A model generated the notes under the pieces. That model worked only from the letters and a program-made list of their open reading frames with translations, was not told the DNA's origin and ran no database searches. DNA of 64,000 nucleotides from Eledone cirrhosa (Eukaryota): the NCBI GenBank assembly GCA_964016885.1, contig OZ024743.1, positions 329,406,001 to 329,470,000 of the forward strand, written 5' to 3'. Of this stretch, positions 5,020-62,649 are shown piece after piece (position 1 is the stretch's first letter; each line of letters begins with the position of its first letter). The position numbers and the translations under genes were made by a program.

Positions 5020-6757
5020 CGTGTGTGTGTTTCTCTCACTAATGTGTGTATGTGTGTGTTTTTCTCACTAATGTGTGTGTGTGTTTCTCTCACTAATGTG
5101 TGTGTGTGTGTGTGTGTTTCTCTAACTAGTGTGTGTGTTTCTCTCACTAATGTGTGGGTGTGTGTTTCTCTCACTAATGTGTGTGTGTGTGTGTTTCACT
5201 AACTAATCTGTGTGTATGTTTCTCTCACTAGTGTGTGTATGTTTCTCTCACTAGTGTGTGTATGTTTCTCCCACTAGTGTGTGTGTTTCTCCCACTAATG
5301 TGTGTATGTTTCTCCCACTAGTGTGTGTATGTTTCTCCCACTAGAGTGTGTATGTTTCTCCCACTAGTGTGTGTATGTTTCTCCCACTAGTGCGTGTGTT
5401 TCTCCCACTAGTGTGTGTATGTTTCTCCCACTAGTGTGTGTATGTTTCTCCCACTAGAGTGTGTATGTTTCTCACACTAGTGTGCGTATGTTTCTCCCAC
5501 TAGTGTGTGTGTTTCTCCCATTAGTGTGTGTATGTTACTCCCACTAGTGTGTGTATGTGTCTCCCACTAGTGTGTGTGTGTTTCTTCCACTAGTGTGTGT
5601 GTGTTTCTCCCATTAGTGTGTGTATGTTTCTCCCACTAGTATGTGTATGTTTCTCCCACTAGTGTGTATGTTTCTCCCACTAGTGTGTGTATGTTTCTCT
5701 CACTAGTGTGTGTATGTTTCTCCCACTAGTGTGTGTATGCTTCTCTCATTAGTGTGTGTATATTTCTCCCACTAGTGTGTGTATGTTTCTCTCACTAGTG
5801 TGTGTGTGTTTCTCCCACTAGTGTGTGTGTGTTTCTCCCACTAGTGTGTGTGTGTTTCTCCCACTAGCGTGTGTGTGTTTCACTCACTAGTGTGTGTATG
5901 TTTCTCTCACTAGTGTGTGTGTGTTTCTCCCACTAGCGTGTGTGTGTTTCACCCCCTAGTGTGTTTGTTTCTCCCACTAGTGTGTGTGTGTTTCTCCCAC
6001 TAGTGTGTTTGTTTCTCCCACTAGTGTGTGTGTGTTTCTCCCACTAGTGCGTGTGTTTCTCCCACTAGTGTGTGTGTGTTTCTCCCACTAGTGTGTGTGT
6101 TTCTCCCACTAGTGTGTGTATGTTTCTCTCACTAGTGTGTGTGTGTTTCTCCCACTAGTGTGTGTGTGTTTCTCCCACTAGCATGTGTGTGTTTCTCTCA
6201 CTAGTGTGTGTGTGTTTCTCCCACTAGCGTGTGTGTGTTTCTCCCACTAGCGTGTGTGTGTTTCTCCCACTAGTGTGTGTGTGTTTCTCCCACTAGTGTG
6301 CGTGTGTTTCTTCCACTAGCGTGTGTGTGTTTCTTCCACTAGTGTGTGTATGTTTCTCTCACTAGTGTGTGTGTGTTTCTCCCACTAGCGTGTGTGTGTT
6401 TCTCCCACTAGCGTGTGTGTGTTTCTCCCACTAGTGTGTGTATGTTTCTCTCACTAGTGTGTGTGTGTTTCTCCCACTAGTGTGTGTATGTTTCTCTCAC
6501 TAGTGTGTGTATGTTTCTCCCACTAGTGTGTGAATGTTTCTCCCACAAGTGTGTGTATGTTTCTCCCACTAGCGTGTGTGTGTTTCTCCCACTAGTGTGT
6601 GTGTATTTCTCCCACTAGTGTGTTTGTTTCTCCCACTAGTGTGTGTGTGTTTCTCCCACTAGTGTGTGTGTTTCTCCCACTAGTGTGTGTGTGTTTCTCC
6701 CACTAGTGTGTGTATGTTTCTCTCACTAGTGTGTGCGTTTCTCCCACTAGTGTGTGT
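5020..6757. repeat. Minisatellite, ~20-22-bp unit GTTTCTCCCACTAGTGTGTGT(AT)
   Basis: Directly visible; the unit contains the palindrome CACTAGTG. Confidence 0.95.
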
Positions 6758-10546: not shown

Positions 10547-11513
10547 TCTGTTGAGCTCTGCTGATGAATGAAATTCCAACCGTGACCATCTCCACTGAAA
10601 GTTTTCATGAAATAGTCTTTTAAGACTATACAGAGCATTTGATGTTATTCCAAATTGAAGGATAAGTGTTTCAAACTTTATTTTATCATGAGTTAAAGGT
10701 CTATAGATTTTTCCCTGGATTTTACTAAATTCTGTGGATGAATTTATATCCTGATTCTCTTTTGAGATGAGTTTGAGTTATTTTTCCTAAATCTTTCGTT
10801 AACTACTTTTCCCATCTTGACGTTATAGTCGCATATATGTTATAGAATGCCGTTAGCTTCTTGCTAAAACAATCTCTATACCTCTCATTTATATTTATAC
10901 TCGGATTCTTTTCCTAGAGTGCTTAAACTATCTGTGACTAATCCCGGTTTTTTTTTCATAAAAACTGTGATAATTATTGCTATTTTGCTGAACTCCTTTG
11001 TAGAGTTTTTTTTCAGAATGTATTTGACTGCTATTTCTTGTAAATAAACATTCACTTCCATCCTGACGTCACTAGCCCCGTTTTTTTCCTCATGTGCTTT
11101 TTCATAAATACACATGAAGGCGAACTAGCCAGTTTTAGAATTCCCTTTTTCGGATTATATTACTGTGAGAGCCCTGGTTTCTGTTGAGCTCTGCTGATGA
11201 ATGAAATTCCAACCGTGACCATCTCCACTGAAAGTTTTCATGTCTTTTAAGACTATACAGAGCATTTGATGTTATTCCAAATTGAAGGATAAGTGTTTCA
11301 AACTTTATTTTATCATGAGTTAAAGGTCTATAGATTTTTCCCTGGATTTTACTAAATTCTGTGGATGAATTTATATCCTGATTCTCTTTTGAGATGAGTT
11401 TGAGTTATTTTTCCTAAATCTTTCGTTAACTACTTTTCCCATCTTGACGTTATAGTCGCATATATGTTATAGAATGCCGTTAGCTTCTTGCTAAAACAAT
11501 CTCTATACCTCTC

Positions 11514-11520
<7 letters not shown>
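10547..11520. repeat. ~340-bp direct duplication (10547-10890 and 11180-11520)
   Basis: Near-identical TCTGTTGAGCTCTGCTGATGAATG...CTATACCTCTCATTTATA blocks; outer ends abut (TA)n. Confidence 0.85.
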
Positions 11521-11543
<23 letters not shown>

Positions 11544-11547
<4 letters not shown>

Positions 11548-11791
11548 TTAATATAGATGAGATTCTACAGGACTAGAACTGTTTCATTCTTTTAAATCTC
11601 TTAAAAGAATATACAGCTAATGTAATTGTACATGTGGCGCCGTTCCCCCGGGATGGGTAGATTCCTGATGATTTCTAAAGAATGAAACAGTTCTAGTCCT
11701 GTAGAATCTCATCTATATTAAAACTTTTATACTCTACAATGTATTGAGTACCTTACTTACTGTGGTTACCTCCGATTCAACCCGGAATAAC

Positions 11792-11837: not shown

Positions 11838-11845
<8 letters not shown>

Positions 11846-12260
11846 AGATCAAAAGATGGTTAAATGAGTTCCATGTATTTTATTATGCGCATTTCAAAAA
11901 CAAATATCATCATGCAATAACATTTGTGTTTTCATCAGATAAAATAGGAGGACATGAAATGAAGGTTAAAAACACTTGTGGATAGTGCAGTTTTAAATCA
12001 ACATTAAATCAACATATCATGTTGATTTAAAATCAAGTGTTTTTAACCTTCATATCATGTCCTCCTATTTTATCTGATGAAAACACAACTGTTATTGCAT
12101 GATGATATGTGTTTTTGAAATACGCATAATAAAATACATGGAACTCATTTAACCATCTTTTGATCTCATATATTATGTATACTCCAGTCCTACAAAACTG
12201 TAGAGTGCTTCTTATCCGATATCTGCATTGCTTTATTGTACTACAATAAAACTCACCTCC

Positions 12261-12298: not shown

Positions 12299-13925
12299 AA
12301 AGTTTTATTTAAAATTGTTGGGTTACAACGAGTAAATATTTTATAACTGATATAAAAGCACTCAACAGTTTTTGGAGTAGGTTTACGATATTAAACAAAT
12401 GGAAACTATATTTATAAAACCATATTTATTTCGTTATATATATTTCTGGGATATCATATTAAAAATATGGTATGCCTTCCTCAGATAAAATACAATATAT
12501 AAGCTGTTTTATAAATAATTTTGACATACCTTAGAATAATGCAACTTCCATTTAAAAGTTGATTTGGTAGTGAAACTGTTAGGACAGTTATATAGAAAGA
12601 AAGATTAAGAAAAAACGAAGATAAAAAAGAAGAAGATGAAGAGATGTATGTAAATAAAAAAGAAGAAGATGAAGAGATGTATGTAAAGAAAAACAACAGA
12701 GCTTCTATAATAAATATAAGAGCATTTGTAGAATAAGTTTTGAATGATTTCTGCTAAATAAGGTTTGTTGAACAATTTTGGTTTTTGTTTGCTTTTGATT
12801 CTGATTGCTTCTAATGAACATGACAACATTTGTCAAATAAATTGGAAGGGTGGTTTTATGTGACTGATATGCGTGGCATACTATGTTCTCTTACGTCCCT
12901 AGATACTCTGTGGAGTGACGAAGATATTCTTGGCGTTTTTAATTTTTAATATTGATATCTGTTGTCTATTCTATGCTTGATCGATAATCATGTAAGTGAG
13001 GCAGGAATATTACTATAAATGTTAATGTATATTTTATTGCTATATATATATATATGTATGTACATATATGTATGGTGGAATCTTTTGTAACGCAATGAAG
13101 ATTTTCATGAAAAATAAGAATCTGTGGAGCATATCACGTAAGTTCACATGTGTGTCTATAATTATCAACTTGAATTTGAGATAACCTTCTCTTTTCTCTT
13201 TTTTCTTTTTTCATGAGAATGCATATATACTTATGTTTGAAGTTTTGTCTCAGATTTTGCTTCTAGACCAAAGAATTTTTAAACTAAGCATGGGGTCATT
13301 TTTTCACACTTATGGATATGTGTCTCATTCATGAATACTGATATTTACATTATAATACCTAATTCATAAAAATTGATAATTCAAATTGATGAGACATATA
13401 TATTTTTAATATATTTTAAATATATCATCTTTCTTTCTTTTTCTTCCTCTACACTGGACGTGATTTATGTGTCGGCTATTTTAACTGTATCCCTTCCCTC
13501 CTTAACCTCTCATATATACGATGATCATCTGTCCCCAAGCTGCCCTACTATTTTTTCACTTCCTCAAAGTATTTCTCTCTCCCATATCTCCTTCTCTCTC
13601 TATCTCGCTCTGTTGTTTTTTCTTTACATACATCTCTTCATCTTCTTCTTTTTTATTTACATACATCTCTTCATCTTCTTCTTTTTATCTTCGTTTTTCT
13701 TCGTCTTTCTTTCTATATAACTGTCCTAACAGTTTCACTACCAAATCAACTTTTAAATGGAAGTTGCATTATTCTAAGGTATGTCAAAATTATTTATAAA
13801 ACAGCTTATATATTGTATTTTGTCTGAGGAAGGCATACCATATTTTTTAATATGATATCCCAGAAATATATATAACGAAATAAATATGGTTTTATAAATA
13901 TAGTTTCCATTTGTTAATATCGTAT
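12296..13925. mobile_element. Large (TA)n-flanked fold-back element with ~310-bp inverted arms, each with an HHR
   Basis: 12390-12702 is the reverse complement of ~13608-13922; HHRs at 12427-12492 (-) and 13816-13882 (+). Confidence 0.75.
13816..13882 (+). ncRNA. Type I hammerhead ribozyme
   Basis: TATTTTGT-CTGAGGA-AGGCATACCATATT..AATATGATATCCCA-GAAA-TATATA-TA^-ACGAAATA. Stem I has G-C where the 1325 copy has A-T. Confidence 0.7.
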
Positions 13926-13930
13926 ATATA

Positions 13931-15294: not shown

Positions 15295-16986
15295 TTAACC
15301 CTTTCGTTACTATATTTCTAACGAAAGACAGTATGTTTTTAACCCTTTCTTTACTATATTTCTAACGAAAGACACTGAATATGTCTTTATCCCTTTCTTT
15401 ACTATATTTCTAACGAAAGACACTGATATGTCTTTAACCCTTTCTTTACTATATTTCTAACGAAAGACAGTATGTCTTTAAATCTTTCATTACTATATTT
15501 CTAACGAAAGACATTGTATATGTCTTTAACCCTTTCTTTACTATATTTCTAACGAAAGACACTGTATATGTCTTTAACCCTGTCGTTACCATATTTCTAA
15601 CGAAAGACACTATGTCTTTAACTCTTTCATTACTATATTTCTAATGAAAGACACTGTCTATGCCATTAACCCCTTCATTACCATATTTCTAACGAAAGAC
15701 ACTGTCTATGTCATTAACCCTTTCGTTACTATATTTCTAATGAAAGACACTGTCTATGTCTTTAACTCTTTGATTACCATATTTCTAATGAAAGACACTG
15801 TCTATGCCATTAACCCCTTCATTACCATATTTCTAACGAAAGACATTGTCTATGTCATTAACCCTTTCATTACCATATTTCTAATGAAAAACACTGTCTA
15901 TGTCATTAACCCTTTCATTACAATATTTCTAATGAAAGACACTGTCTATGTCATTAACCCTTTCATTACCATATTTCTAATGAAAGACCCTGTCTATGCC
16001 ATTAACTCTTTCATTACCATATTTCTAATGAAAGACACTGTCTATGTCTTTAACCCTCTCATTACCATATTTCTAATGAAAAACACTGTCTATGTCATTA
16101 ACCCTTTCATTACAATATTTCTAATGAAAGACACTGTCTATGTCATTAACCCTTTCATTACCATATTTCTAATGAAAGACCCTGTCTATGCCATTAACCC
16201 TTTCATTGCCATATTTCTAATGAAAGACACTGTCTATGTCATTAACCCTTTCATTACCATATTTCTAATGAAAGACACTGTCTATGTCTTTAACCCTCTC
16301 ATTACCATATTTCTAATGAAAGACACTGTCTATGCCATTAACCCTTTCATTACCATATTTCTAATGAAAGACACTGTCTATGTCATTAGCCCTTTCATTA
16401 CCATATTTCTAATGAAAGACCCTGTCTATGCCATTAACTCTTTCATTACCATATTTCTAATGAAAGACACTGTCTATGTCATTAACCCTTTCATTACCAT
16501 ATTTCTAATGAAAGACACTGTCTATGTCTTTAACCCTCTCATTACCATATTTCTAATGAAAGACACTGTCTATGTCATTAACTCTTTCATTACCATATTT
16601 CTAATGAAAGACCCTGTCTATGCCATTAACTCTTTCATTACCATATTTCTAATGAAAGACACTGTCTATGTCGTTAACCCTTTCATTACCATATTTCTAA
16701 TGAAAGACACTGTCTATGTCATTAACCCTCTCATTACCATATTTCTAATGAAAGACACTGTCTATGTCATTAACCCTTTCATTACCATATTTCTAATGAA
16801 AGAGCCTGTCTATGCCATTAACCCTTTCATTACCATATTTCTAATGAAAGAGCCTGTCTATGTCATTAACCCTTTCATTACCATATTTCTAATGAAAGAC
16901 ACTGTCTATGTCATTAACCCTTTCATTTCCATATTTCTAATGAAAGACCCTGTCTATGTCATTAACCCCTTCATTACCATTAACCC
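15295..16986. repeat. 48-bp minisatellite (TTAACCCTTTCATTACCATATTTCTAATGAAAGACACTGTCTATGTCA)n
   Basis: The unit is a multiple of 3, which produces the spurious 498-aa ORF of MKDTVYVINPFITIFL repeats. Confidence 0.95.
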
Positions 16987-19242: not shown

Positions 19243-19559
19243 ACATACATACATACATAACATAAATACATACATACATATATACATACACACTTACTTA
19301 CATATATACGTATATACATACATAATATATATACATAACATATATACATACACACATACACATCTCTCTCTCACTATCTTCACATTGATAGATCTGTGAT
19401 ATTGACCAAATATGCTTCCATTAAAATGTTTCGTACTAAATTACCATGGATGCCAGCTGCCTGTAGAACCAACAGTAAAGTGCAAGCAATGAGGAGAAAA
19501 TCATTTAAGAATGATAGGAAGACAATCCAGGAATTTAACTTAACTTAATTATAATGAAT

Positions 19560-19830
19560 TAATAATTATTTCTAGTTTTGGCACAACGCCAGCAATTATC
19601 CTAGTGTATTACTGGTACTTTATTTGTAATAATGAATTAATAATTGTTTTTACTTTTGGCACAAGGCCAGCAATTAGCCCAGTGTATTACTGGTACTTTA
19701 TTTTATCGACTCCATAAGGATGAAATCAAAGTTAACCTCGGCGGGATTTGAACTCAGACCATAAAGGGCCGTAACTCTATGCTGAAAAGCATGGCGTCCG
19801 ACCCTCCACCGATACTGCCAATCCACCGTC
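19560..19830 (-). mobile_element. tRNA-derived SINE, family A, with duplicated 3' part
   Basis: Reverse complement has A-box-like TGGCAGTATCGG and B-box GAGTTCAAATCC. Confidence 0.75.
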
Positions 19831-20629: not shown

Positions 20630-20632
<3 letters not shown>

Positions 20633-21010
20633 ATATAATTGAATATAAAAGAAAAACGAACACAGATATATACATATATGTGTTCAAATCGCAAGGGACG
20701 AGATTCGCTAAAGTGAAAAGAATACTAACTATAGACAATAGGGTTTGCGAAACAGTACCAAGCTGTCCGGTTTGTATTTATTTTCTTGATTTTTTCTTAA
20801 ATTGAGTCTGGCAAACCCAATTGTCTATAGTTAGTATACTTTTCAGCTTAGCGAATCCGTTCCCTTGCGATTTGAACACTTATATGTATATATCTGTGTT
20901 TATCTCTCTTTTATATTCAATTATAATATACGCCTCGGAAAAATCTCTTTCATAGAGCTATTTTATTGTAAGAGGCTATTTTGAGTTCCTAACTCAATAT
21001 ATACCTTTGA
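20630..21010. mobile_element. (TA)n-flanked fold-back module, no intact HHR core seen
   Basis: 20631-20748 is an imperfect reverse complement of 20811-20927, followed by a unique tail. Confidence 0.65.
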
Positions 21011-21029
21011 TATATATATATATATATAT

Positions 21030-21562
21030 AGATTTTGAGTTTATGTTGGTTGTATACCAACACCTCAGTATGCAGGCCGGAGCACTCGACGAAGTGCGCA
21101 GGTTGGTTTGGTTACTCCGGAGTAGTGTAAAATAAAGTTAAATAAAAGTCAAATGATTAAAATTTAGCTTCGTTTATTACTGCTATATATATTTCAGTGA
21201 CAGCCATCTTTGGCTGTGACCTCTTCAGGCAGTTTGAATTAGTATGGTATAGACAAGTACATATGTTGTTTAGGTGTATGATATTGTCAATACTCTGATA
21301 TGCCCAGTTCCTTGTTGGGTTGTTAATTCACTGGGGAACTGGAGTCATAGAACTCCAGTTCCCCAGTGAATTAACAACCCAACAAGGAACTGGGCATATC
21401 AGAGTATTGACAATATCATACACCTAAACAACATATGTACTTGTCTATACCATACTAATTCAAACTGCCTGAAGAGGTCACAGCCAAAGATGGCTGTCAC
21501 TGAAATATATATAGCAGTAATAAACGAAGCTAAATTTTAATCATTTGACTTTTATTTAACTT

Positions 21563-21570
<8 letters not shown>
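21030..21570. mobile_element. (TA)n-flanked near-perfect ~440-bp palindrome with two HHRs
   Basis: 21129-21345 and 21351-21568 are reverse complements around a few-nt loop. HHRs at 21179-21233 (-) and 21464-21518 (+). Half copy at 22385-22602, relative at 47490-47808. Confidence 0.8.
21464..21518 (+). ncRNA. Type I hammerhead ribozyme
   Basis: ACTGC-CTGAAGA-GGTCACAGCCA(AAGA)TGGCTGTCACT-GAAA-TATATA-TA^-GCAGT. Confidence 0.8.
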
Positions 21571-21604
<34 letters not shown>

Positions 21605-21608
<4 letters not shown>

Positions 21609-21810
21609 AAGTATGACCCCGACGGCAGAGCTCAAGCCGTTTCGACGGTTATTTCTGGACGGCTATTTGAGTCCAGAAATAGCCGCCGAAACGGCTTGAG
21701 CTCTTCCGTCGGGGTCATACTTTTTCCTATTTCCCACTCTATATTACCTTAAGTATTGAATACTCTGGTGCGTTATGGTCCATCTGGTCCCTTGCTACAT
21801 TTCGTTTGTT
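21605..21810 (+). mobile_element. (TA)n-flanked fold-back module carrying the 3' half of an HHR (family also at 43435-43628 and 24835-24885)
   Basis: Stem II GACGGCTATTT/AAATAGCCG(C/T)C-GAAA-CGGC..(G/T)CCG-TC. The CUGANGA half is missing at the inversion point. Confidence 0.65.
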
Positions 21811-22194
21811 ATATATATATATACGTGTGTGTATGCGTATATATAAATGTGTGTGTGTGTGTGTATACATACATATATATGTGTGTGTGTATATATATGT
21901 GCGGGTGTCTGTGATTTATATACACTGATCATAGACACACGTGTATATATATATATATATATGTAGGAGGTGAGTTTTATTGTAGTACAATAAAGCAATG
22001 CAGATATCGGATAAGTAGCACTCTACAGTTTGTAGGACTGGAGTATAAATAATAATATATAAGATCAAAAGATGGTAAAAGAGTTCCATGTATTTTATTA
22101 TGCGTATTTCAAAAGGTTAAAACACACTTGTGAATATGTTGATTTAAAACTGCAATATTCACAAGTGTGTTTTAACATTCATATCATGTCTCCC

Positions 22195-22265
22195 TATTTT
22201 ATCTGACGAAAACGCAAATGTTATTGCATGATGATATTTGTTTTTGAAATGCGCATAATAAAATA
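22195..22265 (+). ncRNA. Type I hammerhead ribozyme within module 21962-22305
   Basis: TATTTTAT-CTGACGA-AAACGCAAAT...ATTTGTTTTT-GAAA-TGCGCA-TA^-ATAAAATA. Confidence 0.8.
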
Positions 22266-22302
22266 CATTGAACTCTTTTAACCATCTTTTGATCTTATAT
22301 AT

Positions 22303-22390
<88 letters not shown>

Positions 22391-22627: not shown

Positions 22628-23139
22628 AAAGAAAAAAAGATGAAATCGAAAATGCAACTGGAGTCTTATTTAAAAAAAATATATATACATATTTATTTGG
22701 TTCCTTTACCGGTTTCGCAGTTCTTTTGCTTTTCAAAAGTAGAGTTGAGATGGAGGGTCTGTGGTTTTTCTCACATCTGTTTGGTCTTTGAATGTTACTT
22801 GTTTTATATGGAAAAAAAGTGGCTCGAAAGGCCAGGTTTTTAGAGAAGTAATTTGATTGGTTGTTCTCTAAAAACCTGACCTTTCGAGCCACTTTTTTCC
22901 ATATAAAACAAGTAACATTCAAAAACAAACCAGATGTGAGAAAAACCACAGACCCTCCATCTCAACTCTACTTTTGAAAGCAGAAGAACTGCGAAACCGG
23001 TAAAGGAACCAAATAAATATATATATATATTTTTTTAAAATAAGACTCCAGTTGCATTTTCGATTTCATCTTTTTTTCTTTATACTTTCACTCGTGTAGG
23101 ACACCTCGGTTATTTTTCATTTTGTAAAAAAAACCTCAC

Positions 23140-23145
<6 letters not shown>
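22628..23145. mobile_element. (TA)n-flanked fold-back module with HHR-like motif (family also at 61870-62072)
   Basis: ~220-bp inverted arms; motif CTT-TTGAAAA-GCA(G/A)AAGAACTGC-GAAA-CCGG-TA-AAG at 22704-22739 (-). Confidence 0.7.
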
Positions 23146-26540: not shown

Positions 26541-27037
26541 TAGGACTGGTGTCCCTATCATTAAATCACCCAGGACACCTCCAACGAGATATACCTTGGA
26601 GGAGGCCAGATAAACCTGCATAGGTGTGAGCTGTAACAACAACACAACAACAACATACGAAGAAATGGGAAAATTTGAAACTTGAAATGTAGTAGTTCTA
26701 ATGCAACTGACTATAACAATAGGCAATCGCGTAAAAGTATGCCTGGAATCGACATAATGTGATCCACCCACATCTCTCATTCTCTCATGAGAAGTATCGT
26801 GATTGAATAGGCGTATAAAGGTGGATTCCCGGTGTACATCGGGAGGTGACCACAGTTAAAAAAGTTACTCAGTACGTTAGTAGAATATAGGCACATTTAT
26901 TTTATTATAGAAATGACTTCGACGGGACTAGAACTGTTTCATTCGTAAGAAATCATCAGGACTTTCTTGATAATTCCTACGAATGAAATAGTTCTTGTCC
27001 TGTAGAAGTCATTTCTATAATTTATATATAGATCCCG

Positions 27038-27440: not shown

Positions 27441-28176
27441 ACTTAAAAAAGAAAATTTCGCTCTACATGGCTGAATACAATAAATGTAATCTGAGTTTTT
27501 CGAATATTAATAATAACATTCGATTCGTTTTCAATTTTGCAAACAAGCCTCAATTTTATAGGCTTGTCAGTAGAATGAACCCTTCATTCTTGCTCTTGTG
27601 TTAGCATGCGAACAGAACTGCAGACATTAATGTTTCTGGGTATCACCCTTCATCAGTAGAGCTCACTGTTCACCTACCAAACTGTCAGAGCTAGTGAATC
27701 GAATGTTATTATTAACATTCTAAAACCTCAGATTACATTTGTTGTATTCAGCCATGTAGAGCGAAATTTTCTTTTTTATTTTAATTTGGCAAAGCCGGAC
27801 ATTTGTCGCTCGTATACAGGAAACTGACTAGCCAGTCTGTTGATATGCAATCTGGCTGATCAGTGGATCTGCTAATATGCAGATCTGACTGATCAGCCAG
27901 TCTGCTAATATGCAAATCAGGCCGATCAGTCCCTGTGTATTTTTTAAAATAGCATATATTTTCACTAGCTGTGACAGTTTGGCAGGTAAACAGTGAGCTG
28001 TACTGATGAAGGGTGATATCCAGAAACATTAGTGTCTGCAGGTCTGTTCGCATGCCAACATAAGAGCAAGAATGAAGGGTTCATTCTACTGACATGGCTA
28101 TAAAATAGAGGCTTGTTTGCATAATTGCAAACGAATCGAATGTTATTATTAATATTCGAAAAACTCAGATTACATT

Positions 28177-28180
<4 letters not shown>
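27441..28180. mobile_element. (TA)n-flanked nested fold-back module with two HHRs
   Basis: 27480-27698 is inverted at 27961-28178, with a second inverted piece at 27696-27777. HHRs at 27618-27661 (-) and 27998-28041 (+). Confidence 0.75.
27998..28041 (+). ncRNA. Type I hammerhead ribozyme
   Basis: CTGTA-CTGATGA-AGGGTGATATCCA-GAAA-CATTAGTG-TC^-TGCAG. The mirror copy has palindromic ACATTAATGT. Confidence 0.7.
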
Positions 28181-29667: not shown

Positions 29668-32600
29668 AATTAAGTTAAAAATGTACATCCACATATGTAT
29701 ACTGAAATACTAGTATGCATATGAATACACACACGTGTACATATGTAGATGTACCGAGTTTTCACTGGTCACTTTACTGTGAGTGTCCAGCTATTCTGTA
29801 TGTAGACACACAGACAAACCGGTTCTTAGAGTCATACTGGTTTTTGAGGAAACACCTTTCCTCTATTCTCCAGAAAGCCAGACAAGGAATATTGGACTAG
29901 TTTCGATGTTGTTACATCTCATCAGCAATATTTACCTATCTTCCGGCTTCTCTAGAGAATCGTGAAAGCACATATCGTTATATGCTTTTTCTATGAAAAT
30001 TAGTAGTGGGCAGACCAATTTGCATAGAGCGTGAGTACGTACCGGTTCAACGGAGACGATAAAAACAAATAACGAAACGAAATTAAATTTCGTTTCGTTT
30101 GTAACTCACTTTTGTATGACTGACGCTTAAACAATTAAGTTAAAAATGTACATCCACATATGTATACTGAAATACTAGTATGCATATGAATACACACACG
30201 TGTACATATGTAGATGTACCGAGTTTTCACTGGTCACTTTACTGTGAGTGTCCAGCTATTCTGTATGTAGACACACAGACAAACCGGTTCTTAGAGTCAT
30301 ACTGGTTTTTGAGGAAACACCTTTCCTCTATTCTCCAGAAAGCCAGACAAGGAATATTGGACTAGTTTCGATGTTGTTACATCTCATCAGCAATATTTAC
30401 CTATCTTCCGGCTTCTCTAGAGAATCGTGAAAGCACATATCGTTATATGCTTTTTCTATGAAAATTAGTAGTGGGCAGACCAATTTGCATAGAGCGTGAG
30501 TACGTACCGGTTCAACGGAGACGATAAAAACAAATAACGAAACGAAATTAAATTTCGTTTCGTTTGTAACTCACTTTTGTATGACTGACGCTTAAACAAT
30601 TAAGTTAAAAATGTACATCCACATATGTATACTGAAATACTAGTATGCATATGAATACACACACGTGTACATATGTAGATGTACCGAGTTTTCACTGGTC
30701 ACTTTACTGTGAGTGTCCAGCTATTCTGTATGTAGACACACAGACAAACCGGTTCTTAGAGTCATACTGGTTTTTGAGGAAACACCTTTCCTCTATTCTC
30801 CAGAAAGCCAGACAAGGAATATTGGACTAGTTTCGATGTTGTTACATCTCATCAGCAATATTTACCTATCTTCCGGCTTCTCTAGAGAATCGTGAAAGCA
30901 CATATCGTTATATGCTTTTTCTATGAAAATTAGTAGTGGGCAGACCAATTTGCATAGAGCGTGAGTACGTACCGGTTCAACGGAGACGATAAAAACAAAT
31001 AACGAAACGAAATTAAATTTCGTTTCGTTTGTAACTCACTTTTGTATGACTGACGCTTAAACAATTAAGTTAAAAATGTACATCCACATATGTATACTGA
31101 AATACTAGTATGCATATGAATACACACACGTGTACATATGTAGATGTACCGAGTTTTCACTGGTCACTTTACTGTGAGTGTCCAGCTATTCTGTATGTAG
31201 ACACACAGACAAACCGGTTCTTAGAGTCATACTGGTTTTTGAGGAAACACCTTTCCTCTATTCTCCAGAAAGCCAGACAAGGAATATTGGACTAGTTTCG
31301 ATGTTGTTACATCTCATCAGCAATATTTACCTATCTTCCGGCTTCTCTAGAGAATCGTGAAAGCACATATCGTTATATGCTTTTTCTATGAAAATTAGTA
31401 GTGGGCAGACCAATTTGCATAGAGCGTGAGTACGTACCGGTTCAACGGAGACGATAAAAACAAATAACGAAACGAAATTAAATTTCGTTTCGTTTGTAAC
31501 TCACTTTTGTATGACTGACGCTTAAACAATTAAGTTAAAAATGTACATCCACATATGTATACTGAAATACTAGTATGCATATGAATACACACACGTGTAC
31601 ATATGTAGATGTACCGAGTTTTCACTGGTCACTTTACTGTGAGTGTCCAGCTATTCTGTATGTAGACACACAGACAAACCGGTTCTTAGAGTCATACTGG
31701 TTTTTGAGGAAACACCTTTCCTCTATTCTCCAGAAAGCCAGACAAGGAATATTGGACTAGTTTCGATGTTGTTACATCTCATCAGCAATATTTACCTATC
31801 TTCCGGCTTCTCTAGAGAATCGTGAAAGCACATATCGTTATATGCTTTTTCTATGAAAATTAGTAGTGGGCAGACCAATTTGCATAGAGCGTGAGTACGT
31901 ACCGGTTCAACGGAGACGATAAAAACAAATAACGAAACGAAATTAAATTTCGTTTCGTTTGTAACTCACTTTTGTATGACTGACGCTTAAACAATTAAGT
32001 TAAAAATGTACATCCACATATGTATACTGAAATACTAGTATGCATATGAATACACACACGTGTACATATGTAGATGTACCGAGTTTTCACTGGTCACTTT
32101 ACTGTGAGTGTCCAGCTATTCTGTATGTAGACACACAGACAAACCGGTTCTTAGAGTCATACTGGTTTTTGAGGAAACACCTTTCCTCTATTCTCCAGAA
32201 AGCCAGACAAGGAATATTGGACTAGTTTCGATGTTGTTACATCTCATCAGCAATATTTACCTATCTTCCGGCTTCTCTAGAGAATCGTGAAAGCACATAT
32301 CGTTATATGCTTTTTCTATGAAAATTAGTAGTGGGCAGACCAATTTGCATAGAGCGTGAGTACGTACCGGTTCAACGGAGACGATAAAAACAAATAACGA
32401 AACGAAATTAAATTTCGTTTCGTTTGTAACTCACTTTTGTATGACTGACGCTTAAACAATTAAGTTAAAAATGTACATCCACATATGTATACTGAAATAC
32501 TAGTATGCATATGAATACACACACGTGTACATATGTAGATGTACCGAGTTTTCACTGGTCACTTTACTGTGAGTGTCCAGCTATTCTGTATGTAGACACA

Positions 32601-33090
32601 CAGACAAACCGGTTCTTAGAGTCATACTGGTTTTTGAGGAAACACCTTTCCTCTATTCTCCAGAAAGCCAGACAAGGAATATTGGACTAGTTTCGATGTT
32701 GTTACATCTCATCAGCAATATTTACCTATCTTCCGGCTTCTCTAGAGAATCGTGAAAGCACATATCGTTATATGCTTTTTCTATGAAAATTAGTAGTGGG
32801 CAGACCAATTTGCATAGAGCGTGAGTACGTACCGGTTCAACGGAGACGATAAAAACAAATAACGAAACGAAATTAAATTTCGTTTCGTTTGTAACTCACT
32901 TTTGTATGACTGACGCTTAAACAATTAAGTTAAAAATGTACATCCACATATGTATACTGAAATACTAGTATGCATATGAATACACACACGTGTACATATG
33001 TAGATGTACCGAGTTTTCACTGGTCACTTTACTGTGAGTGTCCAGCTATTCTGTATGTAGACACACAGACAAACCGGTTCTTAGAGTCAT
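29668..33090 (-). repeat. 465-bp hammerhead-containing tandem array, left arm (~7.4 units, 7 HHRs on the minus strand); retrozyme/Penelope pLTR-like
   Basis: Exact 465-bp period (ORF track repeats at 29715, 30180, 30645 ...). Starts directly after a ~1 kb (TA)n tract. Reverse-complement HHR at 29888-29932 +465n. Confidence 0.92.
29888..29932 (-). ncRNA. Minimal type I hammerhead ribozyme (representative of 7 minus-strand copies at 29888+465n)
   Basis: Exact reverse complement of the 33295-33339 motif. Confidence 0.9.
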
Positions 33091-38176
<5,086 letters not shown>

Positions 38177-38220
38177 TTTTTTCTTCTTTGATCCGTCAAA
38201 GTGACATGATTGAAAAAAAG

Positions 38221-38411
38221 TGATGGACTGGCAGTATCGGTAGAGGGTCAGACGCCATGCTTTGCACCAAAGAGTTACGGCCCTTTATGGTCTGAGTTCA
38301 AATCTCACCGAGGTTAACTTTGCCTTTCATCCTTACGGGGTCGATAAAATAAAGTACCAGTTACACACTGGGATAATTGCTGGCCTTGTGCCAAAAGTAT
38401 AAACAATTATT
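38221..38411 (+). mobile_element. tRNA-derived SINE, family A (full length)
   Basis: A-box-like TGGCAGTATCGG, B-box GAGTTCAAATCT, and family 3' tail. Confidence 0.8.
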
Positions 38412-38648
38412 GAAAAAAGGAGAACAATTATTTTAAAAGGAGTTTTATAAAGTATACTAAAGTATTTCCGGTTTTGATGTAATCCATCTTACCAAATTAC
38501 AATTACAAACAATTAAAAAAGAATTAAAAATTAAAAATCAAGTGTTGAAGAATGTCTCTTTATCTTTCGTCCTGCTGTTTCCAGTCTTACTTTTCTTCTA
38601 TAATCTGTTTTGTATAGAACCACACTCCATTTTCATATATATATATAT

Positions 38649-39445
38649 AAACGGAAAAAATGAAACGAAATTTCATTTCCCACTCTTAGTACGGCTGTTA
38701 CTGAAATATAAGTATGTACACGTACATACATATATGTATACAGACGTACAGTAGTATGTATATATATATACATACATGCACACATATATATATATATGTA
38801 CGTATGGATTCACCGAACATTTATTATAATGCTCGGTGTGTTTGTAAACAAACATCCCGTATTAAGCCATAGTGTCTAGCAACCATCGTTGCTCGTTTGT
38901 TCAACACTGACAAAGGAACGCTGTACTAGTTTCAAGCTTATTAGCTATCGTCAGCAACGTATACCTTCCTGCCAGATGGTTGAACGTCTGAAAGTATTTA
39001 CTTTCCTTATGCATATTAACGACTGAGCAGCCTAATTTGCATATCGAGTGGGTTAATCGGCCGGGTGCACAGAAAACGATAAACGGAAAAAATGAAACGA
39101 AATGAAACGAATGCAAATTAGGCTGCTCAGCCGTTAATATGCATAAGGAAAGTATATACTTTCAGACGTTCAATCAACTGCCAGGAAGGTATACGTTGCT
39201 GACGATAGCTAATAAGCTTGAAACTAGTACAGCGTTCCTTTGTCAGTGTTGAACAAACGAGCAACGATTGTTACTAGACACTACGGCTTAATACGGGATG
39301 TTTGTTTACAAACACACCGAGCATTATAATAAATGTTCGGTGAATCCATACGTACATATATATATGTGTGCATGTATGTATGTATATATGCATACTACTG
39401 TACGTCTGTATACATATATGTATGTACGTATACATACTTATATAT
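38649..39445. mobile_element. Diverged sibling of the 465-bp unit: ~432-bp unit with terminal redundancy plus an inverted second piece
   Basis: AAACGGAAAAAATGAAACGAAAT at 38649 and ~39081. The piece ~39110-39445 is inverted. HHRs at 38919-38959 (-) and 39194-39234 (+). Shares AATTTGCATA, GATAAA and TACTGAAATA blocks with the 465-bp unit. Confidence 0.8.
39194..39234 (+). ncRNA. Type I hammerhead ribozyme
   Basis: CGTTG-CTGACGA-TAGCT(AATA)AGCTT-GAAA-CTAG-TA^-CAGCG. Confidence 0.8.
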
Positions 39446-39515
39446 ATATATATAATGTCTGTGTATGTATAAATATTTATATATACATACACACACACAC
39501 ACACACACACATATG

Positions 39516-39671: not shown

Positions 39672-39937
39672 TATATGTATATATATATACGCATATATAT
39701 GTATATATATATACACATATATATGTATATTGCTGTGGAAAAATGTGTGGAGATGATCAGTGAGAGTGGGGTGGAGTTCTGCGACGTCGACACAGATGAA
39801 TTGGGCCTCCTACTTAGACTTACCTATGACACCAAGTACCTAGATAACCATAACCTTAGCCGTTTCTGCCCCAGTAGACCCACAAGAAGTAGACACCCCG
39901 CCATAACCTCAATGGCAAAAAAGACTCCCATGGGAAG

Positions 39938-40255
39938 GTGGTTTGGGTGGACCAAAGCCATACGGACCCCCAAAACAATGATCAGGTAAGAAAAATGGTC
40001 GCGCATGCAATAGGGGCTAGTATCAAAACTACCCTGAAGGGCCATATATTCAAATTCAACGAAAAGATCTACACCCAAAATGAGGGGGCAGCCATTGGCG
40101 TCAGCATAGCTGGTGACGTTACCAACCTTTTTATGGTGTGGTGGGAAAGGAGACTCAAAGATCTCCTTGGTGAGAGCTCCATAGACCTCTTCATGTACTC
40201 TCGTTACGTAGACGATATTAATATAGTAATAACACTTCTAAGTTTAATATTCTGA
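39938..40255 (+). pseudogene. Penelope-type reverse transcriptase fragment
   Basis: Q..G.AIG and RYVDD motifs; truncated soon after the catalytic motif. Confidence 0.85.
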
Positions 40256-40545
40256 TCGCAGACTTGGTACGAGTGATGAAGAACGTGTCCCGCATGGGCG
40301 ACCCAACAGAAATGGAAAGACACATCCAACACTTCATCAACCGCATGCAGTTCTCTGGCTACAACCAAAGAGACAGAATCAGAGTATACAAAGGAGCCAC
40401 GAAGAAGTATAAGGGCCTCATAGAACTGGACATGAAAGGAATTTGCCCATTATACAGGAGAAAATCATGGAATAGCTTAGATAGAACTAAACATAAGATA
40501 GGGAAAGCCACCTCATGGTATGACAACTAAAGATACCAGAGTGTC

Positions 40546-41040
40546 ATGTTCGTAGACGCTACCCCTGGAGGTAAATTAGCTAACCAGTGTAGAAAGGCCC
40601 TGAGAAAGACCCACTTAAATATTAAAGTGGTAGAAAAGCCAGGAACTACCATAAAATCCCTGATCAGCAAAATATACCCTTTTATGAAAACCCACTGTAC
40701 TAATAGGAAATGTGTTATATGTAAAGTAAACCCCCAGATAAGCTGTAAAACTAGAAACGTAGTCTATGGCATAAGATGTACAGAGGGTACTTGCAGAAAC
40801 ATGACAACAACATACATAGGCGAAACAGCTCGAAGCATAGGTGAAAGGATAGACCAACACTGGGGGAAACTAAAAGGATGAAAAAACAGTTCAGTACTAT
40901 ACGAACATGCCAGACAACAACATGACGGTAACATAGACAACATAGAAATTAAAATAATATCTAAACATAGAAATGACCCAGCAGATAGGCAAGTGAAATA
41001 GAACTTAGAAGGCCAAAGCTAAACAGAAAAAAATGAATGG
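40546..41040 (+). pseudogene. GIY-YIG endonuclease fragment of a Penelope-like element
   Basis: VVY..C..C...YIGET.R...R...H, with in-frame stop at 40879-40881. Confidence 0.85.
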
Positions 41041-41315: not shown

Positions 41316-41361
41316 CTACCACTGATGATGTTGCAAATGTGCAACGAAAGAACTTTGTTAG
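41316..41361 (+). ncRNA. Hammerhead ribozyme in PLE 3' UTR (one stem I mismatch)
   Basis: CTACCA-CTGATGA-T-GTTGCA(AATG)TGCAAC-GAAA-GAAC-TT-TGTTAG. Confidence 0.65.
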
Positions 41362-42006: not shown

Positions 42007-44891
42007 TCTCTCCCTCTCTCTATCTCTCTCTCACACGCACACACTCACATACACACACCCACACACACATAAATATATATGTAATAAATTGAGGTTTTGG
42101 CATAAGTTTAATGTTAAATTACTACTATAAGTGGTATTTTATTTGTATACTTTATCCATTCCATTAAGATGTCTAAGTATTAGTGACAAATAACGTTTTA
42201 ATACACACACATATATATATATAACTGATATATATGTATGCATATATATATATACATACATATATATCAGTTATATACATATATATTAGTATATACATAT
42301 ATATTAGCTAACTAACTATACACTTGCAACAAGGAACAATTGCAACACATTTATACAGTAAAAGGAAAGAGATTAGACAGAGTAATATTAGTCGATAATA
42401 AAACAATACTTTATTGAAAACCCCCTCCTCCCACCGCATATCCCCGTCGCCCACGCATAAGGAAAGTAATCATTGAATGTTTACTGTTCAAAATATAAAC
42501 TATGTATTGACACATAGTTACTGCATAAAATAAATAAACTATAACAACTGCCGCGCATCAACAGTTGAATTACATTTAAATTAGGCGTTTTTCGTTTTAC
42601 TCTTAATCGCAGGTCCATTGCGACCGATGCAAACCATGCGAACAATACACCACTCATGTTGCAAACTCATATTCTGATGACGGGGCTGAAGAAGTTACGA
42701 AACCTTAATAGATTTGTAGATCTAGGATCATACTATTCTAAAAGCAAACATAAAGAATTTATAAATAACGTACGAGATATCTAATTTAAGCACAGTCGTA
42801 TTTTCGTGTTTTTAATAGACACACACACACACGTTGGCGACTAAACTGGCAACCCCACCAAGGTTTCTTGGTGAGGAGGGTGACTTTGGACATCCTGCAG
42901 GACTAAAAACAAAACCTGTCAAAGGGCAAAGGAGCTCTTAAGAGTCAATGGCCATCCAAAATCACCGGGAGAGATGACCCCTTAGCCTTTGTCAAGGCAG
43001 AATTCTAGGAGAAGGAAAACTCTGATATAACACCTGCAACCCTGATGGTATCCAATGATGTTGACTTGTTCTTCTTTTTGGTAAATATCATCTTGGTTAA
43101 GAGAGTGGGACTGGCTTTGGGCAGTGCCTTTGCTCACTATAAAAGCTTCACGGCACAGGCGTTGTTTTGTATCTGGAGATCTCTCTGCACTTGTCGTCAC
43201 ATGGTATCATGGGCCCAGCACTATGTGTCAATAATTGTCACAAGTGTAGTGTTTCTACCAGAGTTTTCAAGTCGCTGGCTGGACTAAAAAGTCACACTCG
43301 TTCAGCTCATCGGTAGGGGTTCTCCTACATGGATATAAAGTAGTGACCGTACTCGAAAACGAGTTGGCAGCCACCATGTATGTATATATGTATTCTGTAA
43401 GTGTTTAACTGTGAAAGTGTTTATATATATATATAACGAAGGAAATGTGGTAAGGAACCAGATGGACAATAACGCACCAAAGTAATCAATACTTAGGGTA
43501 GTAGAGTGGGAAATAGGAACAAGTATGTCCCCGACGGCAGAGCTCAAGCCGTTTCGACGGCTAATTCTGGACAAAATTAGCCGTCGAAACGGCTTGAACT
43601 CTGCCGTCGGGGTCATACTTGTTCCTATATATATATATATGTAAATGTAAATGTGTGTGTGTGTGTGTGTGTGACACGGAAGTTCGAAAACGGTTTGAGA
43701 TCGTCTTAACGAAGACAATACATAAATGTTTGTTATGGGGGTAGAGCGGCGTGAGTGGCGGCGATGATGCTGGTGATGGTTGTGGTGGTGTTGGGGGGTT
43801 GTGATGGTGGCGGCAGTGGAGCGTGTGGATTAGGGGTGTTGTGGCGACAATGTAGGTGGTAAGGGCTCTGTTTGTGTAGGTGGTGTTGGTGGGAGTTGTG
43901 ATAGTGGGGGTAGTGCTAATGGTGAAGGGTGTGGTGGTGATAGAGGTGAAACCAATGGTGGTGGCTATTATCTCATGGCAGACATATGGTTTTCTTTAGA
44001 CTTGACAAAATATATGTGGGTAACCCAATACTTCCTCCTTAGCAGCGTATTTCCCCTCACGCGACCATACCCCTTCCTACTTTTATAACCAGCATGCCAG
44101 AACAGTGGTACGGCTTGTTACATACCTATATATATATATTTATATACACTTATCCATAAGTATATTTGTATACATAAACACACAAATACGTACACACACA
44201 TACACACACACACACACGCACACGCATACACCCACATGCACACACACACACACACACACACGTATATATATATATGTGTGCGTGTTTTGTGATTATATAT
44301 ATGTATATTATGTATAGTAAGTAATGTATATATCCTTACATATGTTCGTAGATACGTTTGTACATACACACACATATACACTCATACAAAAGCGCAGACA
44401 TCTCTGTTAATGAACGGCACACAAAGACCTGGTCAGCCATCCTCACTCACCATCACTCGAACTAAAATCACAACGGCTGTCTCTCTGATGTTATAAATCA
44501 TTTTAAAGGAATATTCCAAGGAGACAATCTGTTTAGGTTTCTGTTTATTTTGGCACTCAATCCGCCTGTTATTTCCTTTCTACAAAACCCTATGGTCATA
44601 GACGACCATTTACAACAGCGAGAAACTACAATGTAGCCCATAATTTCTACGATAACCATCTTAAGATCAAGACTGGAAATATTTACAATATTTAAAAACA
44701 GCTGGAGTTAGTAATCACAATACAAGGTTGATACACGGGTGGAATTTGGCCTACAGAAATGTTTATATTTGTTATTTGAACGTGGGAAAAACAATTTCCA
44801 CACGACCCTCCTGCCTCAGATGATATCACATCGTAGTAGAGTGATTCTTGCTAGACAAAACACACACAGAATCTGTTAAATTCACTGTAGA

Positions 44892-57439: not shown

Positions 57440-57985
57440 CTTATGGGGTCGATAAAATAAAGTACCAGTAATACACTGGGATAATTGCTGGCCTTGTGCC
57501 AAAAGTAGAAACAATTATTACTAATATCGGTGGTCTGAGTTCAAATCCCGCCCCGGTTAACTTTGCCTTTCATCCTTACGGGGTCGATAAAATAAAGTAC
57601 CAGTAATGTACTGGGATAATTGCTGGCCTTGTGCCAAATGTAGAAATAATTATTACTAATATCGGTGGTCTGAGTTCAAATCCCGCCCCGGTTAACTTTG
57701 CCTTTCATCCTTACGGGGTCGATAAAATAAAGTACCAGTAATACACTGGGATAATTGCTGGCCTTGTGCCAAATGTAGAAATAATTATTACTAATATCGG
57801 TGGATTGGCAGTATCGGTAGAGGGTCGGGCGCCATGCTTTCCAGCATAGTTACGTCTCTTTGCGGTCTGAGTTCAAATCCCGCCCCGGTTAACTTTGCCT
57901 TTCATCCTTACGGGGTCGATAAAATAAAGTACCAGTAATGTACTGGGTAACTGATGACCTTGTGCCAAAAGTAGAAACAATTATT
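57440..57985 (+). mobile_element. Tandem cluster of family A SINEs (134-bp internally deleted units, then a full copy)
   Basis: CTAATATCGGTGG-TCTGAGTTCAAATCCCGCCCCGG repeated at ~57521 and ~57655; complete head at ~57795. Confidence 0.8.
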
Positions 57986-58218
57986 ACTACTGTTATTCTT
58001 ATCCTTATCATATATCTTAGTATGTTTTCAGACGTAAAGGTCAGGCGGACATCACACCTCGTCAACATCAATTTAACATTTTCGTCTATCGTCCAAGTAG
58101 AGTCTCAGAATATTGGTGAAAATAGATATTTGTAAAGGTTAGTAACAACAACAACAGCAATAATAATAATAATAATTGTTTCTACTTTAGCCACAAGGCC
58201 AGCAATTACCCAGTGTAT

Positions 58219-60709: not shown

Positions 60710-61140
60710 GATAATAATTGTTTCTACTTTTTGGCACAAGGCCAGAAAATACCCAGTGCATTACTGGTACTTTATTTTATCGACTCCGGTAGGACGAAAA
60801 GCAAAACTAACCTCGGCGAAATTTTATCTCAGAACGTAAAGGCCCGTAACTCTATGACACAAGGTATCGTGTCTGACGCTGTACCGATGCTGCCAATCCG
60901 CTGCCTTATTGGTTTTTATAATAATGGTTTCTTATATAGGCACAAGGCCAGCAATTTTTGGGGAAGGGAAAGTCGATTAAATCGACCTCAGTACGTGACT
61001 GGTACTTTATTTTATCGACCCCTTAAGGATGAAAGGCAAAGTTAACCTCGGCGGGATTTGAACTCAGATCATAAAGGGAGGTAACTCTATGCTTCAAAGC
61101 ATGGCGCCCGACGCTCTACCGATACTGCCAATCCACCGCC
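60710..61140 (-). mobile_element. Two adjacent family A SINEs
   Basis: Reverse-complement copies with GATTTGAACTCAG and CCGATACTGCCAATCC. Confidence 0.75.
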
Positions 61141-61713
61141 CTTTTTTGATAATAATACAAATTGTTTCTAAGGAAAATTGAAATCGAATAAATCGACCCC
61201 AGTATGTTACTGGTGCTCTATTTTATCGACTCAGATAATAATAAGTACGTGCCTTGTAGTCATTTGAGTGGGGATATGTTGGGTCATGTTGGGGCACCCC
61301 CATCTTTTACTGTGGCCATGCTGGAGCAACATCCTCAAGGGATTGAGTCGATCATATCGAACACAGTATTTATTATTCCATCAATTCCGACGACGAGTGT
61401 TCCAGATTCTCAAACAATAGAATTGTCCGCTCGTGAAATTAAAGTACAAGTGTCTGAGCATTCCATAGCCATGTGTACCCTCATGGAGATTCGGCGTGAC
61501 TCAGTGTGTGACATGGGTGGCCCTTTGAATTACAGATGTAACTCATCTTTAGACTAGTGTAATATAAAATATGTCTTGCTGAAGGAAACAACGCACTGTC
61601 AAGAATCGAACTACTGGCTTTACCATTGAGAACCGAACTTCCGAATCCCTAAGCCAGGTACCTCACCAATCCTGAAGCCACGTACCTCACAAATCCCCAA
61701 GCCACGTACCTCA

Positions 61714-62310: not shown

Positions 62311-62357
<47 letters not shown>

Positions 62358-62649
62358 ATATTTAATATAGAAATGGCTTTCTACAGGACTAGAAATATTT
62401 CATTCGTATGAAGTCATCAAGAACCCCGGGTGACATAGTAAGTCGTTGATATTCATTGGTTTCATGGTGGTTTGGGCGTTGATATTTATATCAAGGGCCT
62501 GCTTTGTCACCCGGCGTTCCACATGGCTTTATACGAATGAAACAGTTCTAGTCCTGTAGAAGCCATTTCTATATTAAATATTGATGTTCACACTCTACTA
62601 ATGTATTTAGTACCTTATTTACAGTGGTTACCCCCCTATTTAATTCAGG

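Follow-up and report, generated by a model that had tools for sequence, protein, structure and literature searches.

The animal non-LTR retrozymes are high-copy, non-coding units some hundreds of base pairs long, each with one type I hammerhead and a GC content below 50%, which are found in tandem copies, are predicted to fold into highly self-paired circles and occur in genomes that also hold Penelope-like elements (PLEs) (PMC7229834). In coral, mussel and axolotl, the monomers were reported to be circularised by host ligase (PMC7229834). PLEs have been proposed as the carriers of animal retrozymes, the arguments being shared hammerheads and co-occurrence (PMC7229834) and distribution and similarity to pLTRs (10.64898/2026.07.22.740005). 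In the latter work an origin of retrozymes from PLEs was proposed, the retrozymes of Xenopus were found to resemble pLTRs, from which local tandem growth was suggested, and eight of nine Xenopus retrozyme dimers stayed uncleaved in vitro (10.64898/2026.07.22.740005).

An inverted, 5'-truncated copy, a one-sided tail and a bias towards (TA)n and microsatellites are the marks of PLE insertion (PMC8557442; PMC3846280), and the CxxC linker of Neptune and Nematis PLEs was proposed to favour microsatellites (PMC8557442; PMC3846280). Purified PLE protein of the anole cuts and extends both strands and prefers AT-rich DNA; two start sites, between which no strand preference was observed, bound the tail (PMC11167929). 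Mutants of the hammerhead were without effect on insertion in vitro, and uncut RNA was the main substrate (PMC11167929). Non-autonomous derivatives of Chlamys PLEs such as MRC1 are non-coding, multicopy in head-to-tail arrangement, and use PLE machinery (PMC8557442).

The window analysed here is a stretch of 64,000 nucleotides from Eledone cirrhosa, and it holds an element made of a 432-bp unit that in all probability belongs to the established class of animal non-LTR retrozymes (PMC7229834) and carries a PLE insertion signature. The element is very likely a retrozyme mobilised by a PLE. Its parts are given below in window coordinates; unit position 1 is the base directly 3' of the predicted hammerhead cut, read in the hammerhead sense.

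38635..38649, unstranded: left (TA)n target run, placed from sequence and junction; its final 3 bases also match the unit
38647..39103, minus strand: long arm, 457 nt, from unit 253 round to 277 (1.06 units); its 3' end is P1
38647..38705, minus strand: one-sided extension (PLE-type tail), 59 nt, between P2 (38706) and P1 (38647)
38647..38671, plus strand: 25-bp direct repeat, copy 1
38690..38696, minus strand: predicted long-range helix H2, 3' strand (unit 228-234), shared by independent circular folds
38713..38805, minus strand: long TA/CA-rich hairpin within the unit; the 465-bp unit has one too
38865..38871, minus strand: predicted helix H2, 5' strand (unit 53-59), shared by independent circular folds
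38913..38967, minus strand: long-arm hammerhead motif (type I), with C3 at 38954 and cleavage predicted between 38924 and 38923
39079..39103, plus strand: 25-bp direct repeat, copy 2, at a period of 432; the joint that goes back 432 is present in other copies
39104..39110, plus strand: head-to-head junction filler, 7 nt, within a local 10-bp duplication
39111..39443, plus strand: short arm, from unit 314 round to 218 (0.78 unit); its 3' end is P2
39186..39240, plus strand: short-arm hammerhead motif (type I), identical to the long-arm one, with C3 at 39199 and cleavage predicted after 39229
39440..39454, unstranded: right (TA)n target run, placed from sequence and junction; its initial 4-5 bases also match the unit

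The earlier note had described a unit of about 432 bp with a 23-bp terminal redundancy, followed by an inverted piece and flanked by (TA)n, and this anatomy was borne out. The period is 432 bp and the exact direct repeat (38647-38671 and 39079-39103) measures 25 bp, or 23 bp when counted from 38649. Positions 39108-39443 align in inverted orientation to 39046-38706; of the 341 columns, 325 match, 11 mismatch and 5 are gaps. Runs of (TA)n lie on both sides (38635-38649 and 39440-39454). The two arms are placed head to head with their 3' ends abutting the flanks; as both flanks are (TA)n, a target-site duplication, which in animal retrozymes exceeds 4 bp where one occurs, cannot be read there. 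The unit is non-coding, as the note had held, its longest stop-to-stop frame being 67 codons, and its GC content is 0.37.

Apart from the tandem copies, the features of animal non-LTR retrozyme units named at the outset are shared here, and 432 bp lies within the size range of about 150-450 bp given for the non-coding unit. In arrangement the copy differs from them, being a head-to-head insertion of 1.06 + 0.78 unit and not a tandem array; its 465-bp homologue forms 7- and 10-mers. Inverted arms or fixed two-site ends are not described for retrozymes in the available parts of the two reports (PMC7229834; 10.64898/2026.07.22.740005). Titles and abstract openings in the open literature yielded no head-to-head retrozyme insertions with two fixed ends, which subscription papers, databases and supplements may show differently, and no open-literature paper on hammerhead repeats in cephalopods was found. 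With the insertions of EN+ PLEs, as far as these are covered by the available text of three papers, the element shares an inverted head-to-head arm, an extension on one arm, two reverse transcriptase (RT) start sites, an AT-rich or (TA)n target and a hammerhead in the repeat (PMC3846280; PMC8557442; PMC11167929). It differs from them in that the unit has no RT or endonuclease frame, in that the template would be circularly permuted or tandem, and in that its hammerhead, in place of the minimal form, has a complete extended stem I and a stem III of 2 bp. The resemblance to MRC1 lies in a non-coding, multicopy, head-to-tail unit and the likely use of PLE machinery (PMC8557442), whereas no autonomous partner of the 432-bp unit was found in the window.

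The hammerhead cores of the element start at 38954 on the minus strand and 39199 on the plus strand. A strict type I pattern (stem I of at least 5 bp, stem II of at least 4 bp, plus stem III) matched both arms, the unit of the neighbouring 465-bp array and a further motif at 28003, and gave no match in 60 shuffles of the window. The core nucleotides C3-U4-G5-A6-N7-G8-A9, G12-A13-A14, A15.1-U16.1 and H17 are present together with three helices, and stem I is open. Stem III is a palindrome of 2 bp. The earlier note had stated that the stems differ from those of the array and are still paired around a conserved core. The stems do pair in this way; the note had missed that the base of stem II (10.1-11.1) is U·U in both arms, where the array has G-C. 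Its details also need correction in that the outermost position of stem I is U·U, N7 is C and not U, and the cleavage triplet is GUA and not GUC. The G10.1-C11.1 pair is highly conserved in hammerheads, and short palindromic stems III have been described as requiring dimers (PMC4209133). The stem II U·U at 10.1-11.1 is shared with HHR_Amex2 of the axolotl, which cleaves 22% as a monomer and well as a dimer (PMC7229834).

Searches of Rfam at E values up to 10 returned no hammerhead match in the 432-bp element; the array unit scored 38.9 bits on HH9 against a gathering score of 52. The 48-nt hammerhead core folded no better than shuffled sequences (47 of 200 as good), and when the extended stem I was included, as good a fold was reached by 4 of 200 shuffles for the left arm and 11 of 200 for the right. 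From its sequence, the motif is a predicted type I hammerhead, and its cleavage is likewise predicted only.

Two relatives of the element lie upstream of it in the window.

27444..28179, unstranded: third, more distant relative, with a 437-bp unit, a direct repeat of 45-52 bp, an inverted arm and (TA)n flanks
29669..33091, minus strand: left arm of the 465-bp array, 7.36 units; its 3' end is P2 (unit 227)
33090..37811, plus strand: right arm of the 465-bp array, 10.15 units; its 3' end is P1 (unit 301), with a 74-nt tail

The 432- and 465-bp units are homologous over their whole length, with 262 of 426 aligned columns identical (61.5%). After removal of the hammerhead, the local score of 190 compared with 51.5 +/- 7.4 (maximum 87) for dinucleotide shuffles and was reached by none of 300, a result that holds in both shuffle directions. 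The claim that the element is a diverged sibling of the array, and the alignment outside the hammerhead core that had been proposed as its check, are thereby upheld. That both have the same architecture is true of the head-to-head plan and the end points and not of size, at 1.06 + 0.78 units against 10.15 + 7.36. The nearness of the two is probably due to chance, because such elements are dense in the window. In the array as a whole (29669-37811) the two head-to-head arms overlap by 2 nt, at 33090-33091. The left arm has no differences among its repeats in 3424 nt, and in the right arm a single substitution and a short deletion are found in 4722 nt. The start of the right arm was also seen to lie all but exactly on P2 (unit 223), perhaps by chance. 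The 437-bp element carries hammerheads at 28003 (plus strand) and 27656 (minus strand), in which stem III has 3 bp and stem II starts from A·A at its base. Its unit folds as a circle with a z-score of -7.5 (30 shuffles). Outside the hammerhead it is related to the 432-bp unit (0 of 300 shuffles in both directions), and its similarity to the 465-bp unit is not significant there (10 and 15 of 300 shuffles).

The ends of the arms fall at corresponding places in these units. At P1, the long arm of the 432-bp element ends at unit 277 and the right arm of the array at unit 301; at P2, the short arm ends at unit 218 and the left arm of the array at unit 227. Each pair falls in the same or adjacent alignment columns, and the distance between P2 and P1 is 59 nt in the 432-bp and 74 nt in the 465-bp unit. 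The 437-bp element is built likewise, its tail measuring about 36-38 nt. All three have P2 about 7-12 nt ahead of the 3' strand of the common predicted helix H2 and P1 15-32 nt past the start of a GAAAUUU motif, and the 59-nt extension (38647..38705) contains the 3' strand of H2 and the GAAAUUU hairpin. In sequencing data, P2 recurs as a loose end running into (TA)n in 46 contigs of run X1, two of X4 and one of X7; these were drawn from the stretch 38647-39125, of which P1 is the first base and thus outside this end count. Read or loose ends of X21 at 38668-9, 39034-7 and 39103 were considered as element ends and rejected, all of them lying on AATT as marks of a reduced-representation library.

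Sixteen two-armed elements were chosen by eye from a self-comparison of the window. In 13 of them one arm is flush to (TA)n and the other has an extension of 38-99 nt; of the other three, one has both arms flush, one has an extension that is not followed by a (TA)n run, and one is unclear. The 13 tailed elements have one start site per arm, unlike the anole PLE in vitro, and the tails in the window, at 59, 74 and up to 99 nt, exceed the 30-40 bp given for EN+ PLEs. Judged from sequence, the best reading of the one-sided extension between P1 and P2 is a Penelope-like tail.

Beside the three related elements, small two-armed inverted elements in (TA)n were observed, several of them with minimal hammerhead-like motifs and nearly all with a tail of 64-99 nt on one arm. 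They lie at the following positions.

11545-11788: small two-armed inverted element
11838-12260: small two-armed inverted element
12306-13929: small two-armed inverted element
20631-21567: small two-armed inverted element
21605-21809: small two-armed inverted element
21966-22305: small two-armed inverted element
22628-23145: small two-armed inverted element
26825-27021: small two-armed inverted element
43436-43625: small two-armed inverted element
62355-62642: small two-armed inverted element

Outside the 432/465/437 group, 9 of 11 tails, from about six independent families, have ACTC starting 6-10 nt into the tail, a tetranucleotide present in 3.8% of the 14-mers of the window (tails starting at 11725, 12175, 12383, 21129, 21727, 22053, 23082, 43515 and 62585). 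A different group of PLEs may use it as a common RT start signal.

A broken PLE lies close to the 432-bp element at 39893-40881, where PLE-like RT, CxxC linker and GIY-YIG frames are found in three pieces, the Pfam matches being weak and under the cut-offs. PLEs thus occur in this genome, since RT and GIY-YIG frames are present with a CxxC linker like that of Neptune and Nematis. In tblastn searches of the window the remnant matched only itself, and a link between the units and its 3' end was rejected, the scores lying within those of shuffles. A hammerhead-like motif was seen past the remnant at 41322, shortly before a TA run, and a relaxed scan picked up isolated hammerhead-core-like motifs at 42674 and 27206. 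A 342-bp direct repeat (10548-10889 and 11181-11516; 98% identity, period about 633) lies between (TA)n runs, and each copy begins with a hammerhead-like motif; the whole resembles a partial tandem. A 40-bp inverted repeat (37980-38019 and 38135-38174), seen by eye between the array and the 432-bp element, has its two copies facing across a (TA)n run, and a short interspersed repeat about 190 bp in length, abundant in the window, lies at 38213-38411, with further copies at 2680, 14875, 19550-19830, 47074, 57440-57990 and 60712-61230, in one place as a 135-bp tandem. Minisatellites occupy 5051-6757 (23 bp), 15295-16980 (48 bp) and 3610-4787 (97 bp). No tRNA was called in the window, and Rfam matches to miRNAs and snoRNAs were discarded as lying on palindromes or microsatellites and under the cut-offs.

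Folded as a circle, the 432-bp unit reached -129.7 kcal/mol with 69% of its bases paired and a z-score of -6.1 (40 shuffles). The reverse complement folds almost as well (z-score of -4.8 against -6.1), and therefore much of this stability is plain palindromy. The separate circular folds of the 432- and 465-bp units have 45 pairs at common columns (31 identical, 5 changed on one side and 9 on both), 3 of which are a mis-pairing of the core and not the catalytic fold. The 465-bp unit retains 99 of the 145 pairs of the 432 fold, where random placement of the same substitutions retained 82.2 +/- 4.8 (maximum 98, n = 2000). Double changes numbered 15 against 9.6 +/- 2.7 (maximum 19) under the null, a weak signal when taken alone. 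Within the hammerhead, 15 of 18 pair positions pair in both units (10 identical, one changed on one side and four by double changes); of the remaining three, two are U·U in the 432-bp unit, including 10.1-11.1, and one is U·U in the 465-bp unit. The covariation that the earlier note had reported is thus seen as a tendency of the divergence to keep structure, in the hammerhead (15 of 18 positions) as in the fold (99 of 145 pairs), and it does not reach the level of an R-scape result.

The size of the family was estimated by comparing the element (38647-39125) with four of 23 sequencing runs: X1, which may be the source of the window; X21, which consists of reduced-representation reads under the same organism label; and X4 and X7, which are from other organisms. 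Summed contig depth was left out as a measure of copy number. Matches were found in 12,008 contigs of X1, in 76,106 of 12,467,656 reads of X21, and in 47 contigs of X4 and 15 of X7. The family is large, high-copy and, as the note had supposed, diversified. The unit-boundary joint from 39078 to 38647 was found in one X1 contig and in 41 X21 reads from 14 starts, and six further such joints are present in X1, most of them with variant letters between. The unit boundary is therefore crossed in this copy and in others, in records too short to show a dimer with two hammerheads.

Variation was read from the best 40 of 81 variant rows, from which one junction row and five rows of private letters were dropped to leave 34. 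Only 4 of the 34 variants break a predicted pair, against 13.9 +/- 2.3 for random placement (0 of 5000), a comparison that covers the best-supported rows, whose variants travel together in subfamilies, and that uses a fold predicted on the 432 copy. Among the best 40 of 81 rows, the hammerhead varies at N7, in loop II and by a flip of U·G to G·U in stem I, one variant letter restores the outer stem I pair, and no variant falls on the catalytic positions or on stem II, including 10.1-11.1. A double change of A-U to U·G in the distal stem of the hammerhead has both letters at the depth of one X7 contig. The private letters of this copy lie at 38703, 38869, 38998, 39022 and 39071, where at least 99% of X1 depth differs, and amount to about 1%. 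In two of these five cases the letter carried by the family disrupts a predicted pair of the 432 copy, which makes the fold outside the hammerhead partly unreliable. Of the 11 differences between the arms, three are private letters of the left arm, two are family polymorphisms and six are absent from the best 40 of 81 rows; ageing accounts for part of these differences, as against two source RNAs.

The earlier note had inferred selection on ribozyme function from stems that stay paired. Structure is indeed kept through the divergence and folding is retained, and the sequence comparisons support selection on folding in the lineage. This concerns the source lineage and not the present copy with its five private letters, the pairwise excess of double changes is weak (15 against 9.6 +/- 2.7), and selection on folding is not equal to selection on cleavage, which is a separate matter. 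The copy itself has one hammerhead per strand and so cannot yield a monomer by double cleavage, and RNA transcribed across it would fold back along some 330 bp. Given this single hammerhead per strand and the roughly 1% of private changes, it is most likely a dead-end insertion without a function of its own.

As the stretches of the unit copied in the two arms overlap, ordinary twin priming on one linear monomer cannot have produced such an element; we infer that two passes or two templates were needed. On balance we favour head-to-head insertion of a high-copy, non-coding hammerhead unit into (TA)n by a PLE RT-endonuclease, probably from circular RNA. Once the element is accepted as a PLE-mobilised retrozyme, a circular RNA is the reasonably probable template. 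By analogy with described retrozymes, tandem source copies would be transcribed, paired hammerheads would cut out monomers and host ligase would close the circles. The PLE protein would then bind around helix H2 and the GAAAUUU hairpin, both strands would be nicked in (TA)n, and one cDNA would start at P1 and the other at P2. Each cDNA would travel a variable distance round the circle (in the 432-bp element 0.78 and 1.06 turns, for the array 7.36 and 10.15), and microhomology of 2-3 nt or a short filler would then serve to link both in head-to-head orientation. The 432 copy, unable to release a monomer, would have drifted since its insertion. If copying of a circular template is primed on both target strands, the array, the 432-bp and the 437-bp element are explained by one rule with different run lengths. 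The more specific proposal of two-sided rolling-circle target-primed reverse transcription is tentative: a dimer of the PLE RT-endonuclease would copy retrozyme circles from both nicked strands at once, at two fixed starts that bracket H2 and the hairpin, with an RNA origin kept across units about 55-60% alike and head-to-head arrays of up to 17 units arising per event.

A circle is not needed for insertion by the anole PLE, since hammerhead mutants had no effect in vitro (PMC11167929). Two-strand insertion by a PLE could accordingly have used linear, uncut read-through of a tandem locus, with arrays growing later by unequal crossing-over and the hammerhead as a conserved passenger or protein-assisted motif. 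We consider this a serious but less likely rival. It agrees with the local tandem growth from a pLTR proposed by Li et al. and with the eight of nine Xenopus dimers that did not cleave (10.64898/2026.07.22.740005); the U·U in stem II and the 2-bp stem III suggest a weak monomer, and the 457-nt arm needs merely a template of 1.06 units. It accounts less well for the near-perfect array arms, each with its own start site, which one circle explains in a single event, for the catalytic positions kept among the best 40 of 81 family variant rows, and for the circles shown for other animal retrozymes (PMC7229834).

It might also be that an autonomous PLE has the unit as its pseudo-LTR. The element would then be an ordinary insertion with 5' truncation and an inverted copy, comparable to the smaller palindromes of the window, many of which look like such stumps. 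The inverted arm and tail are PLE marks (PMC8557442; PMC3846280) and Xenopus retrozymes resemble pLTRs (10.64898/2026.07.22.740005), yet this reading is improbable: in all three related elements one arm crosses the unit boundary into its own tail and not into coding sequence, the same boundary joint is found in other copies, the 432-bp unit lacks a long reading frame, and none of the X1 records, in which contigs break at branches, continues into unlike sequence. A DNA-level origin as a MITE, fold-back element or satellite, with the arms as terminal inverted repeats and the hammerhead match incidental, would fit the long inverted arms, the TA target and the many internal palindromes. It is highly improbable and has been largely refuted, given that one unit supplies both arms as overlapping copies, with junctions that differ between elements, that the strict hammerhead pattern had no match in 60 shuffles, and that pairing survives by way of G·U wobbles (A-U to U·G, U·G to G·U), which favours constraint at the RNA level.

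In conclusion, three related non-coding units bear the insertion signature of PLEs, and in two of them, 39% diverged from each other, the ends still fall on homologous bases. Because of this agreement, the small RNA region from helix H2 to the U-rich tract is likely to be an RT start signal. The choice between a circular and a linear template becomes testable with the existing in vitro assay. The two-sided rolling-circle reading, if true, would name both the enzyme that mobilises animal retrozymes and the cis-signal by which it does so.
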